Source: Shigella phage ESh17
DNA length: 64,000 bases
Direction: 5' to 3' (one strand)
Sequence record: ON528727
Shown here in pieces: positions 41,503 to 50,296 of the stretch. The translations under genes and the position numbers were made by a program. Every line of letters starts with the position of its first letter. Position 1 is the stretch's first letter. The notes under the pieces were generated by a model. The model was not told the DNA's origin. It saw nothing but the letters and a program-made list of their open reading frames with translations, and searched no databases.

Positions 41503-41575
41503 TGGGAATTAGCCAAGTTGGTAAGGCACTGGATTTTGATTCCAGGATGCAAAGGTTCGAGTCCTTTATTCCCAG
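41503..41575 (+). tRNA. tRNA-Gln (anticodon UUG)
   Basis: cloverleaf folded by hand; 7-bp acceptor tgggaat/attccca; anticodon loop ttTTGat; GGTTCGAGTCC T-arm. Confidence 0.8.
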
Positions 41576-41576
41576 C

Positions 41577-41663
41577 GCGAGAATGGTCAAATTGGTAAAG
41601 GCACAGCACTTAAAATGCTGCGGAATGATTTCCTTGTGGGTTCGAGTCCCACTTCTCGCACCA
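41577..41663 (+). tRNA. tRNA-Leu (UAA), type II with long variable arm
   Basis: acceptor gcgagaa/ttctcgc; loop ctTAAaa; encoded CCA. Confidence 0.8.
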
Positions 41664-41668
41664 AATTT

Positions 41669-41742
<74 letters not shown>

Positions 41743-41752
41743 ATTTAATTTA

Positions 41753-41826
41753 CTCCGTGTAGCTCAGTTTGGTAGAGCGCCTGATTTGGGATCAGGAGGT
41801 CCAAGGTTCAAATCCTTGTATGGAGA
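41753..41826 (+). tRNA. tRNA-Pro (UGG)
   Basis: acceptor ctccgtg/tatggag; loop ttTGGga. Confidence 0.8.
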
Positions 41827-41828
41827 CT

Positions 41829-41918
41829 GGAGGCGTGGCAGAGTGGTTTAATGCACCGGTCTTGAAAACCGGCAGTCGCTCCGGCGACTCATAGGTTCAA
41901 ATCCTATCGCCTCCGCCA
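41829..41918 (+). tRNA. tRNA-Ser (UGA), type II
   Basis: acceptor ggaggcg/cgcctcc; loop ctTGAaa; long variable arm; encoded CCA. Confidence 0.8.
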
Positions 41919-41924
41919 GTTTTT

Positions 41925-42000
41925 GCTGATTTAGCTCAGTAGGTAGAGCAACTCACTTGTAATGAGAAGGTCGGCGGTTCGATTCCGTCAATCAGCACCA
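41925..42000 (+). tRNA. tRNA-Thr (UGU)
   Basis: acceptor gctgatt/aatcagc; loop ctTGTaa; encoded CCA. Confidence 0.8.
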
Positions 42001-42001
42001 A

Positions 42002-42076
42002 GGCCCTGTAGCTGGAAGGTTCAAGCAAGCGACTCATAATCGCCAGATGGTGGTTCAATTCCACCCAGGGCCACCA
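42002..42076 (+). tRNA. tRNA with CAU anticodon (Ile2 lysidine-type or Met)
   Basis: acceptor ggccctg/cagggcc; loop ctCATaa; encoded CCA. Confidence 0.75.
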
Positions 42077-42088
42077 AATTATGAATTA

Positions 42089-42175
42089 GGGGAGTTATCC
42101 CGTAGAGGTAGCGGTGTGGACTGTAAATCCATTGTCATTGCGACTCGGGTGGTTCGACTCCATCACTCCCCACCA
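42089..42175 (+). tRNA. tRNA-Tyr-like (GUA), type II, with irregular acceptor/D-arm junction
   Basis: perfect 7-bp acceptor ggggagt/actcccc, anticodon stem-loop gtgga-ctGTAaa-tccat, long variable arm, T-arm ggtgg-ttcgact-ccatc, CCA; but 4 nt rather than 2 between acceptor and D-stem. Confidence 0.5.
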
Positions 42176-42179
42176 ATTT

Positions 42180-42254
42180 GGATGTGTAGCTCAGTGGTAG
42201 AGCAGTTGACTGTTAATCAATTGGTCCATGGTTCGAATCCATGCATGTCCGCCA
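42180..42254 (+). tRNA. tRNA-Asn (GUU)
   Basis: acceptor ggatgtg/catgtcc; D-arm gctc-agtggta-gagc; loop ctGTTaa; encoded CCA. Confidence 0.75.
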
Positions 42255-42368
42255 AATTTGTGACAACTGTCACATTAATATCTACTTGACGCGATTATAA
42301 GGGTTGAACTGATCACTCTTCTCTTAATTTCGTGTGAAGACATCTTGATTGTTGGAGTAGGTATTAAT

Positions 42369-42444
42369 GTGGCCGTAGTTCAGTTGGTAGAACTCGAGAT
42401 TGTGATTCTCGTAGTCATGGGTTCGACTCCCATCGGTCACCCCA
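42369..42444 (+). tRNA. tRNA-His (GUG); no encoded G-1
   Basis: acceptor gtggccg/cggtcac; loop ttGTGat; discriminator C; encoded CCA. Confidence 0.7.
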
Positions 42445-42448
42445 ATTA

Positions 42449-42524
42449 CGGGGCATAGCTCAGAAGGAAGAGCAAGGACCTTCTAAGTCCTAGGTCGTAG
42501 GTTCGATCCCTACTGCCTCGACCA
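42449..42524 (+). tRNA. tRNA-Arg (UCU)
   Basis: acceptor cggggca/tgcctcg; loop ctTCTaa; encoded CCA. Confidence 0.8.
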
Positions 42525-48118: not shown

Positions 48119-48122
48119 AGTT

Positions 48123-48152
48123 GTTTACTTTCTCCTAGAATTGTGATAGTAT
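48123..48152 (+). promoter_or_regulatory. early promoter
   Basis: GTTTAC, N18, TAGTAT; stem tgtga/tcaca. Confidence 0.55.
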
Positions 48153-48212
48153 ATTCACAGTTACTTGAAGAGATAAATTATTAATTAAAATATTTACATT
48201 TAAAGGATACAC

Positions 48213-48686
48213 ATGAAAACATATCAAGAATTTATTACTGAAGCAGCTATTAATTCTCAAATTATTGCTGAATCTTTTACTGATCTTTTGAAATTTAAAA
48301 AAGGTCAAAAAATCACTGCTGTATTGGATGATGGTACAGAAGTTGAGATGGATGTACAGGGATATAATTATGCAGTAGATGGAAAACTGTATAATAAATC
48401 TCATGCTAAATTTGATTCATTTGACGACTTTGTTAATACAGTTGAAGATGAAAAAACTCGTAGATCCATTGCAACTGGCGACGCTAAGGTTCTTATGGCA
48501 CATGGCCATGAACGCATCCGCGCTAAACAGAATAAAATGGGCGAAGATAATTTTGCATTAGTTGGTTATCAATCTGGTAAACAAACTTATGGCTATCAAC
48601 GTACTGCTACCATGTATAACAAAAATGGTAAAATTGCCTTTGTGAATAGTAAAGGTTCTATTCAGTACGTTAAATCGTTCAAATAA
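48213..48686 (+). CDS. internal protein (ipIII/ipII family) with canonical capsid targeting sequence, 157 aa
   Basis: begins MKTYQEFITE, matching the recalled T4 CTS MKTYQEFIAE; position downstream of e. Confidence 0.7.
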   Translation: MKTYQEFITEAAINSQIIAESFTDLLKFKKGQKITAVLDDGTEVEMDVQGYNYAVDGKLYNKSHAKFDSFDDFVNTVEDEKTRRSIATGDAKVLMAHGHERIRAKQNKMGEDNFALVGYQSGKQTYGYQRTATMYNKNGKIAFVNSKGSIQYVKSFK

Positions 48687-48839
48687 GCAAATAAGAAATA
48701 TGGGAACAAGCTGGACCTCATGATTCTGTGAGGGATTCCCGCCAACCTGTAATAAGGTCGAGCCCAAGTGCGGTAATGGGTAAATACAGAAATGGACAAT
48801 TCATGCGCCATGGAATGGCCCAAATTTAGAGAGAATAAA

Positions 48840-49379
48840 ATGAGAACATTTTTAACTGGTCCTTATCTATCCCTGATGAATGCTTTTACACACCATTCTG
48901 ATGCTAGAGTAGAAGAAATTTGTAAAAACGATTATATCCCACCATTTGAAGAATTACTTAAACAGTATTGCACACTTCGACTAGATGGTGGACGTCAATC
49001 CGGTAAATCAATTGCTGTGACTAACTTTGCTGCTAATTGGCTGTATGATGGCGGAACAGTTATTGTTCTTTCTAATACTTCAGCTTACGCTAAAATTTCT
49101 GCAAATAACATCAAAAAGGAATTTTCGCGTTATTCTAATGATGATATACGTTTTCGTTTATTTACTGATTCTGTGCGCAGTTTTATTGGTAATAAAGGAA
49201 GTAAGTTCAGAGGTTTATCGCTTTCGCGAATTTTGTATATAATTGATGAGCCTGTCAAATCTCCTGATATGGATAAGATTTATAGCGTCCATATTGACAC
49301 TGTACACTACTGCTGCAATAGTAAATGTTGCATTGGTGGTATTACTCGTCCACAGTTTTTCGTAATCGGAATGCAATGA
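48840..49379 (+). CDS. small P-loop NTPase with C-terminal Cys cluster, 179 aa
   Basis: start at ATG 48840 after GAGAG; Walker A GGRQSGKS, Walker B LYIIDE; C-terminal HYCCNSKCC. Confidence 0.5.
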   Translation: MRTFLTGPYLSLMNAFTHHSDARVEEICKNDYIPPFEELLKQYCTLRLDGGRQSGKSIAVTNFAANWLYDGGTVIVLSNTSAYAKISANNIKKEFSRYSNDDIRFRLFTDSVRSFIGNKGSKFRGLSLSRILYIIDEPVKSPDMDKIYSVHIDTVHYCCNSKCCIGGITRPQFFVIGMQ

Positions 49380-49705
49380 TGACAGACACTCAGCTTTTCG
49401 AATATCTTTATTTTTCGCCAAAAACTATTAAAAATAAATTGGTGAATCATTTTGAAATTTTAGCAAATAATAACATTTTGAGCGAATTTTATCCCAAGCA
49501 ATACAAATTACAAAAAGGCGTATTCAAAGGATGCAGAGTTTTGTGTACTGCTCCTAATGCACGGCTAATGAATAAAATTCCATATTTTACCATGGAATTT
49601 ATTGATGGGCCTTTTAAAGGACTAATCACCCAAAGTTTAATGGCATATGATTCTGAGCCATTTTTAATTAAAGAACAATCTTGGATAAATTTATTTTCTA
49701 ATTGA
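49376..49705 (+). CDS. hypothetical protein, 109 aa
   Basis: ATGA overlap with previous gene. Confidence 0.45.
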
Positions 49706-49712
49706 GGTTTAT

Positions 49713-50075
49713 ATGAAAGCATATCAAATTCTTGAAGGCACACATAAAGGTACTATTTATTTTGAAGATGGTATTCAAGCACGAATTATTGTTTCTAAAA
49801 CCTTTAAAGAGGACTCTTTTGTAGACCCAGAAATTTTCTACGGTTTGCACACCCGTGAAATTGAAATTGAATCACAGCCTACAGTTAAAATTGAAGGTGG
49901 TCAACACCTGAACGTAAACGTTCTGCGTCGTGAAACTCTGGAAGATGCAGTTAAGCATCCGGAAAAATATCCGCAGCTGACCATCCGTGTATCCGGATAT
50001 GCAGTTCGCTTTAACTCTCTGACTCCGGAACAGCAGCGCGACGTTATCGCTCGTACCTTTACTGAGAGTTTGTAA
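49713..50075 (+). CDS. GrcA/YfiD-like autonomous glycyl-radical cofactor, 120 aa
   Basis: C-terminal [29 protein letters not shown] glycyl-radical motif; the last ~180 nt use host-like GC-rich codons. Confidence 0.85.
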
Positions 50076-50296
50076 TGGCAAAGATAATTATTGAAGGTTC
50101 TAAAGATGTGCTAAATGCTTTCGCCGAGTGGTTTAGTAATTCAGGCGAACAGCAATTTAACGAAGCCTGGAATATGGGTGATATTGATGGAATTTATCCT
50201 ACGACAGAAATTTCTGTTCAAGGATATGGCATTCATGAACCTATTCGTTTAGTTGAATATGATTTATGTACTGGTGAGGAAGTCAAATATGATTGA
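50075..50296 (+). CDS. hypothetical protein, 73 aa
   Basis: ATG overlapping previous stop. Confidence 0.45.
   Translation: MAKIIIEGSKDVLNAFAEWFSNSGEQQFNEAWNMGDIDGIYPTTEISVQGYGIHEPIRLVEYDLCTGEEVKYD

Follow-up and report, generated by a model that had tools for sequence, protein, structure and literature searches.

The window analysed here is the whole 64-kb stretch (64,000 nucleotides) of Shigella phage ESh17, and it consists of T4-type phage DNA of the genus Tequatrovirus. Our subject is the gene at 49713-50075 of this window, the homolog of T4 vs.6 (Y06I), whose product resembles GrcA (YfiD) of E. coli. The gene is composed of two dissimilar parts, and we argue below that its 3′ part was probably copied from the grcA gene of the bacterial host. 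The T4 gene order is kept around it, with homologs of the T4 lysozyme gene, nudE, vs.8, vs.7, vs.6, vs.5, vs.4, vs.3 and regB. The nearest record is that of Shigella phage SHBML-50-1, which is 99.9 % identical across 1 kb and 100 % identical across the gene itself (49713-50075). The features of the gene and its immediate surroundings are listed here, where GC3 stands for the G+C content of third codon positions and ORF for open reading frame.

49703-49705, plus strand: TGA stop of the vs.7 homolog, overlapping the GAGG of the next line (from the ORF ends)
49704..49707, plus strand: Shine-Dalgarno-like GAGG, 5 nt before the ATG of the vs.6 homolog (direct reading of the sequence)
49713..50075, plus strand: vs.6 (Y06I) homolog, GrcA/YfiD-like, 120 aa (ORF; protein identity of 97.5 % to T4 Vs.6; synteny)
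49713..49890, plus strand: phage-type 5′ segment, codons 1-59 and the first base of codon 60 (GC3 0.20; diverged homolog of the GrcA N-terminus with phage codon usage)
49891..50065, plus strand: putative host-derived conversion tract, residues 61-117 and two bases of codon 118 (equal to E. coli grcA nt 200-374 bar one private synonymous change)
49916, plus strand: third base of the Val codon GTA, at a GTA/GTT polymorphism of E. coli grcA (A here)
49995..49997, plus strand: codon of the radical glycine, Gly95, in RVSGYAV; GGA here and GGT in E. coli (sole difference inside the tract)
50066..50075, plus strand: phage-type 3′ end of the gene, the third base of GAG and then AGT TTG TAA (three mismatches to E. 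coli in 10 nt)

We take Gly95 to be the bearer of the radical from established knowledge of the family; it corresponds to Gly102 of YfiD, with an offset of seven residues.

Structure of the gene and its product

A preliminary description, made from the letters of the sequence, had called the gene a mosaic of a phage-like 5′ half and a host-like 3′ half, and this is borne out by blastn, by codon comparison and by a breakpoint test. When the gene was searched by blastn against 5426 complete E. coli genomes, its nucleotides 179-363 (49891-50075) matched grcA in all of them with up to 97.8 % identity, the elevation that had been predicted for the 3′ segment. The first 178 nt gave no blastn alignment in any of the 5426 genomes. 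The match to E. coli grcA is perfect over 106 nt (49891-49996), is interrupted by one synonymous mismatch at 49997 (GGA vs GGT in the codon of the radical glycine), and is perfect again through 50065, so 174 of the 175 nt of the tract are identical. The last three sense codons then differ, being GAG AGT TTG in the phage and GAA AGC CTG in E. coli. The GAG and AGT states are common to the genes of Slopekvirus and Pseudotevenvirus, which have not been converted; because the last 10 nt carry the states of these unconverted relatives, the tract is an internal patch, bracketed on both sides by phage-type sequence within the gene. The host-like run, which the preliminary description had drawn as far as the stop codon, is therefore real but ends about 10 nt before it.

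The maximum chi-square breakpoint lies at 49891, with 48.7 % identity to E. coli grcA on its left (over the alignable part of the 5′ segment) and 97.8 % on its right, and the observed value was reached in 0 of 5000 permutations. A switch in codon choice had been placed at about 49896; the switch was found, and its position moves to 49891. GC3 is not uniform along the gene, as had also been anticipated, and rises from 0.20 in the 5′ part to 0.42-0.43 in the 3′ part. The latter value falls in the top 0.65 % of 57-codon windows drawn from the long ORFs of the window itself (mean 0.237, sd 0.065). Leucine, arginine and proline codons of the types CTG, CGT, CGC and CCG make up 14/14 in the tract vs 1/6 in the 5′ half. 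The E. coli codon is used at 56 of the 57 tract codons, against 23.1 ± 3.2 expected from the codon usage of the window (P = 6e-27). These codons had been described as host-like and GC-rich. They are host-like, but they are grcA's own codons rather than simply GC-rich ones, GC3 of grcA being only 0.43-0.44. The shift in composition and similarity is abrupt and statistically supported, and it occurs inside one ORF.

Over 173 bases, the distance of the tract is 1 to E. coli, 15 to Citrobacter, 26 to Klebsiella and 28 to Salmonella. At the 23 sites in the tract that separate E. coli from K. pneumoniae, ESh17 has the E. coli state at 22. By megablast against the same 5426 genomes, the grcA tract is the only match of the 64-kb window to E. 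coli chromosomes, and no other host-like DNA of the window was found on them. The other megablast match of the window is a tRNA-Tyr/Asn stretch, which hits tRNA genes on E. coli plasmid records only. We also considered pflB or tdcE as the donor of the tract and rejected them, the tract having only some 80 % identity to pflB ends.

The tract (49891-50065) codes for the glycyl radical domain, and the product of 120 residues is a small stand-alone protein with this domain at its C-terminus. The Pfam family Gly_radical (PF01228) matches residues 60-101 with 67.1 bits (cut-off 22.2), the YfiD structure 6OWR aligns to the product with E = 9e-42, and residues 697-759 of pyruvate formate-lyase (PFL, 1H16) align to its C-terminus with E = 4e-26. 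The radical-glycine motif RVSGYAV is present, together with a PFL-like C-terminus. The preliminary description had stated that the last 60 or so residues are identical to E. coli GrcA/YfiD, which is correct: residues 61-120 equal GrcA residues 68-127 without exception. The family of E. coli GrcA (TIGR04365 / IPR011140; 6OWR is a nuclear magnetic resonance structure) matches residues 20-120 with 154.8 bits, and this speaks against a plain assignment to GrcA, the score being under the NCBIfam equivalog cut-off of 170 because the N-terminal half has diverged. By itself, the 5′ segment gave no family match in profile searches; in the whole protein, it can be aligned to TIGR04365 and YfiD from residue 20-22 on. 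What the phage protein shares with E. coli GrcA is thus the C-terminal domain and a more distant N-terminal homology from about residue 20. It differs in its N-terminal half, which is 7 residues shorter, has about 49 % nucleotide identity over the alignable part and follows phage codon usage, and the genes differ in location, since that of ESh17 lies in a phage early-gene cluster and E. coli grcA lies beside ung. Judged from its sequence, the product belongs to a diverged phage Vs.6/Y06I subfamily of GrcA-like spare parts and, by the NCBIfam rule, is not the bacterial equivalog.

From T4 Y06I the product differs at three residues. T4 Y06I is reported to take the glycyl radical from PFL activase and so to restore PFL cleaved by oxygen (Wagner 2001, as given in PMC8683613); the preliminary description had alluded to such a YfiD homolog of T4, and the gene in question is indeed vs.6. 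By analogy with T4 Y06I, to which it is 97.5 % identical, the ESh17 protein may rescue PFL as well. It would then act as a spare part, charged by the host activase PflA and taking the place of the C-terminal piece that PFL loses on cleavage by oxygen.

Converted and unconverted phage genes

We aligned base by base the genes of 12 Tequatrovirus and Mosigvirus phages and of four Jiaodavirus phages, and the larger counts given in this section are BLAST identity bands. The mosaic with the same 5′ junction was found in T4, for which a comparison had been suggested beforehand, and in every Tequatrovirus and Mosigvirus examined. Against E. coli grcA, 519 phage records match at at least 95 % identity and 90 at 90-95 %, all starting at host nt 199-202; in total, some 600 records of Tequatrovirus and Mosigvirus have the mosaic. 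For some Mosigviruses a BLAST start at host nt 162 gave the impression of longer tracts; we rejected these, as the alignment extends through moderately similar sequence and the junction is unchanged. The preliminary description had proposed a recent conversion event in this phage. The conversion is upheld, but it is neither special to ESh17 nor a single event, given T4 and hundreds of other phages and the parallel case in Klebsiella phages described below.

T4 Vs.6 has 97.5 % protein identity to the ESh17 product, the same neighbours (vs.7 and vs.5), the same mosaic and the same 5′ junction. It differs in GTT at the polymorphic Val codon and in R73H within the tract, where ESh17 has GTA and its private GGA. 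The latter T4 change (CGT to CAT, Arg73His) was read in the T4 reference (NC_000866, 5558-5920) and occurs neither in the 11 other E. coli phages compared nor in E. coli.

Between Tequatrovirus and Mosigvirus, identity is 68-84 % in the flanking genes and 89.3 % in the 5′ half of vs.6, and it reaches 98.2 % in the tract, which is no lower than the values within genera. Differences fixed between the genera number 12 in the 178-nt 5′ half vs 0 in the 173-nt tract (Fisher p = 4e-4), and the nearest of them lie at 49882, 9 nt before the tract, and at 50072, 7 nt after it. From E. coli alleles the 12 phages differ at 0-6 of the 173 nt, and four of them, two per genus, are identical to a living E. 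coli allele at 173/173. The tract thus falls inside E. coli diversity, and the 5′ half follows the phage phylogeny. At the site of 49916, about half of evenly sampled E. coli genomes have GTT; ESh17 has GTA and the 11 other Tequatrovirus and Mosigvirus genes compared have GTT, so both E. coli alleles are found among phages. Because the tract failed to diverge as its flanks did, it does not predate the split of the genera, and on the evidence of these alignments the mosaic is younger than that split.

A parallel case is provided by the genus Jiaodavirus. Its vs.6 homologs (e.g. those of PSE-D1, KPV15 and 15882-6-2) are like that of ESh17 in gene, in the phage-type 5′ half and in the GAAGG at the 5′ start of the tract, and differ in that the tract is apparently derived from K. 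pneumoniae. GC3 jumps from 0.20-0.32 to 0.60-0.65, and the tract is 97.1 % identical to K. pneumoniae grcA, 92 % to that of K. aerogenes and 88.6 % to that of E. coli. Compared with the E. coli phages, its 3′ end is reached about 13 nt sooner. PSE-D1 has the K. pneumoniae state at 18 of the 23 sites that separate the two host species; set beside the E. coli state at 22/23 in the E. coli phages, this points to independent events from different donors. Against K. pneumoniae grcA, 106 phage records match at 95-99 % and 28 at 90-95 %, and all such records among the matches listed are Klebsiella phages.

The K. pneumoniae grcA was taken from two PLSDB records labelled as plasmids, of which one, of 5.37 Mb, is evidently a whole chromosome. 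This replicon (CP125156.1) is named 'plasmid unnamed2' and carries ung-grcA. An old Jiaodavirus event had been considered on account of a best identity of 89.6 % (Pseudocitrobacter) among 80 GTDB host genes, and was dropped; that panel was without K. pneumoniae, whose grcA gave the 97.1 %. Two records have irregular reading frames: in LR134122.1 (K. aerogenes NCTC10006), a one-base gap in grcA shortens the annotated coding sequence, and in KPV15 the vs.6 homolog (1501-1862, 362 nt) is frameshifted and annotated as two short coding sequences, being either a pseudogene or the result of a sequencing error.

The protein stretch encoded by the tract of ESh17 is identical to that of the host, and the Klebsiella-type tract brings the residues LLDAVEH for LEDAVKH, which could affect the fit to PflA and PflB of the host. 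At these two positions of the radical domain, host GrcA proteins have LEDAVKH in Escherichia and Citrobacter, LLDAVEH in Klebsiella, Raoultella and Salmonella, and LMDAVEH in Enterobacter. The phage types partly track those of the hosts, with LEDAVKH in the E. coli phages compared and in RB43, and LLDAVEH in Jiaodavirus, Slopekvirus and Krischvirus. PflB itself has LLDAMEN/H at the same stretch.

The homologous gene is also present in Karamvirus, Slopekvirus, Pseudotevenvirus, Krischvirus, Aeromonas T4-like and T5-like phages. In these unconverted groups, the 3′ half has only 73-83 % nucleotide identity to E. coli grcA, though the protein is almost unchanged; 22-32 of the 57 codons equal those of E. 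coli, and the longest exact runs are 20-31 nt. Such identity is what one would expect as background where the protein is conserved and synonymous sites are saturated. Of the genes compared, those of Tevenvirinae, Slopekvirus and Pseudotevenvirus have the phage-type N-terminal sequence in common. None of the host GrcAs that were read contains it, and more distant phage groups have more diverged N-termini. The sequences thus speak for the conversion of an older, diverged phage gene and not for a fusion. The idea of gene conversion against the host gene, put forward in the preliminary description, is supported both by this pre-existing diverged homolog in other genera and by the phage-type sequence on either side of the tract.

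Among IMG/VR phage homologs outside the converted groups, none exceeded about 84 % identity to any of the 80 host genes, with the exception of one contig (UViG_2706794630_000006, 19 kb). The grcA of this contig (1501-1797) has a host-type N-terminal region and a 3′ part 91.3 % identical to that of Yersinia artesiana, and probably represents DNA of a host or the flank of a prophage, not a phage vs.6. No phage record was above 83.8 % to Salmonella grcA. As Salmonella-type tracts were not found, the effect is specific and does not go with the gene in general.

The composition of host grcA is uniform, with GC3 of 0.44 and 0.43 in its two halves, and the gene adjoins ung in both E. coli and K. pneumoniae. 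Between these species, its two halves have diverged to a similar degree (84.4 % and 86.7 % identity). Because the host gene is uniform, linked to ung and equally diverged in both halves, the transfer appears to have run from host to phage, the phage genes being the mosaics.

Origin of the host-like tract

The explanation that we consider likely is recurrent gene conversion from host to phage, limited to the stretch where the phage and host genes stay homologous. The comparisons indicate one conversion or more with E. coli as the donor and another with K. pneumoniae, and within the E. coli phages there were probably several conversions. An alternative is a single host-to-phage transfer, followed by spread between Tequatrovirus and Mosigvirus through phage-phage recombination in co-infection, with the Klebsiella tract as a separate one-off and no ongoing conversion. 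T-even phages recombine readily in mixed infection, and both the 5′ boundary shared by all 12 E. coli phages and the GTT allele found in most of them fit such a spread. However, the fixed sites at 49882 and 50072 would then call for phage-phage crossovers in two windows of less than 10 nt that match the limits of host homology, and the 5′ half, with 89 % identity between the genera, should often have been transferred along with the tract, yet has 12 fixed differences. The occurrence of both E. coli alleles at 49916 among phages, and the 173/173 identity to a living host allele in members of both genera, also argue against a single transfer. We regard this alternative as unlikely, and independent conversions from the host would account more simply for the pattern in the two genera.

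Very unlikely, in our opinion, is one ancient capture of the grcA 3′ part in a common ancestor with vertical inheritance since. The same gene architecture throughout Straboviridae and T5-like phages would agree with it, but the tract is undiverged and without fixed differences between genera that differ by 11-32 % around it, E. coli phages have E. coli states where Klebsiella phages have K. pneumoniae states, and sister genera have 3′ halves in phage codons that are 73-83 % identical. Convergence without any DNA transfer, through purifying selection and codon adaptation to host translation, could draw on the near-invariance of the 60 C-terminal residues in phages and hosts and on the host-preferred codons of the tract. 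It is highly improbable, since relatives on the same host with nearly the same C-terminal domain match at only 22-32/57 codons, each phage group follows its own host at 23 mostly synonymous sites at which hosts of similar codon preference differ, and no adaptation of this kind is seen in the gene's own 5′ half (GC3 0.20). An artefact, by which host reads were misassembled into the phage contig, or a transfer from phage to host has nothing in its favour beyond being a general possibility, and we find either barely credible. T4 and hundreds of phages that were sequenced independently have identical junctions, private substitutions are present, and the tract continues the reading frame of one ORF that has phage-type sequence on either side of it, all of which contradicts an artefact; the uniform host grcA, adjoining ung and diverged between species like the rest of the gene, contradicts a reverse transfer.

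Several points nevertheless weigh against recurrent conversion from the host. Its evidence is entirely comparative, and has the scope in aligned genes and BLAST bands given above. For Tequatrovirus and Mosigvirus, compared in 12 sequences, phage-to-phage spread of one tract may have played a part, and the sharing of GTA and GTT could be due to parallel mutation. Many phage tracts have 1-6 private changes, so that conversion is not frequent enough to erase all drift. Moreover, T4-type phages break down host DNA and bear modified cytosine, which makes the route of a host strand into a phage genome conjectural. The self-reinforcing part of the mechanism proposed in the next paragraph is a model and not a result.

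The phage family holds an old, diverged copy of the gene, in which, under recurrent conversion, the stretch of about 175 nt for the radical domain was replaced by host grcA via homologous recombination. The tract starts at the point where the phage and host genes become alignable (GAAGGTGG) and ends a few bases before the stop codon, at the limit of homology; as its limits coincide with those of phage-host homology, we infer pairing over the whole homologous stretch. T-even infection offers plentiful fragments of host DNA and very active recombination-dependent replication. A fragment or single strand of host DNA could pair with replicating phage DNA, its non-homologous ends would be trimmed, and replication would fix the change. 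The initial event would be a rare, homeologous one on a gene of about 78 % identity, leaving about 170 nt of near-perfect homology. This homology would ease later conversion at each infection, so that the tract would stay synchronised with host alleles as the rest of the gene drifts. Lineages with about 75-83 % identity in the 3′ part would seldom be converted, which would explain the unconverted genes of Karamvirus, Krischvirus and T5-like phages. Such a 'homology trap', in which lytic T-even phages keep the radical domain in step with grcA of their current host species and the N-terminal half evolves freely, is a tentative proposal, to which we give a little less than an even chance.

Known systems and further observations

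The gene and its biochemistry are already known, and the T4 reference sequence itself contains the mosaic. Functional work and Pfam-level notes on Y06I/YfiD exist (PMC8683613, PMC1524935). In the literature searched, we found no account of the mosaic at the nucleotide level, of how it recurs or of its host specificity, and a mention in the T4 genome review (PMC150520) or in Mosig 2001 (PMC37436) is possible. The closest precedent for intragenic recombination between host and phage is that of psbA and psbD of cyanophages, phage-borne host metabolic genes with patchy G+C whose segments were exchanged with the host (Zeidner 2005; Sullivan 2006, PMC1484495). As in these genes, the mosaic of vs.6 is seen through composition and recombination tests. 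Unlike them, vs.6 has a single tract with sharp bounds, which corresponds to one protein domain and whose identity to living host alleles goes up to 100 %. It further differs in belonging to enterobacterial T-even phages that degrade host DNA, in its reciprocal specificity in two host species, and in a direction of transfer from host to phage only.

T4 and its relatives are textbook virulent phages that destroy the host chromosome, and hardly any DNA is known to be common to the two. In two phage genera, vs.6 nevertheless has a tract whose identity to living host alleles reaches 100 % at most, and a third genus has a Klebsiella-specific equivalent. This makes vs.6 a compact, well-defined and tractable locus for measuring recombination from host to lytic phage, with an auxiliary gene that would be matched to the partner proteins of the host through copying rather than mutation. 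If the homology trap is true, vs.6 could serve as a natural reporter of how often host DNA recombines into virulent phages in the wild, and the trap would be a general route by which auxiliary genes of phages track host partners (here PflA and PflB) without mutation and selection.

There are also practical consequences, as primers or read mapping that touch the 3′ half of vs.6 will cross-match host DNA. The gene was chosen, as grcA, as a tag gene for Straboviridae in PCR and quantitative PCR in a 2026 paper (PMC12845203). The forward primer of that study equals 49764-49785 of the window, in the phage-only half, and the reverse primer equals the last 20 nt of the gene (50056-50075) with 2 mismatches. 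Because the reverse primer lies at these last 20 nt, specificity against host DNA depends on the forward primer only. The annotation of vs.6 and grcA is inconsistent, with the names 'pyruvate formate-lyase', 'ribonucleotide reductase subunit' and 'hypothetical' all in use.

Around the gene, a scan for promoters and terminators between 48700 and 51000 gave no signal above the shuffled expectation. The TAA of the vs.6 homolog shares its final A with the ATG of the vs.5 homolog (50075-50296), which has 73 aa vs 58 aa in T4 and includes a frame change. The vs.8 homolog (48728-49379) is also spread over two frames relative to T4, with residues 1-32 at 48728-48823 and residues 26-219 at 48792-49376. 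In both cases, either close relatives differ by frameshifts or one of the records contains an error. Between the lysozyme gene e and the vs.8 homolog (48119-48791), the window has one ORF of 157 aa (48213-48686) that resembles an internal protein, with a weak match to IpII, in the interval where T4 has ipIII, ipII and denV. No denV (endonuclease V) was found across the whole 64-kb window.

Further away, a cluster of 11 tRNA genes was identified at 41503-42524 (Gln, Leu, Gly, Pro, Ser, Thr, Met/CAT, Tyr, Asn, His and Arg). We take T4 to have 8 tRNA genes, so that Tyr, Asn and His would look like extras in this window. The Tyr-Asn stretch (about 42086-42240) matched no E. coli chromosome; its matches, at 84-91 % identity, are tRNA-Tyr/Thr genes in 255 E. 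coli genomes, where they lie on plasmid records of 92-115 kb.

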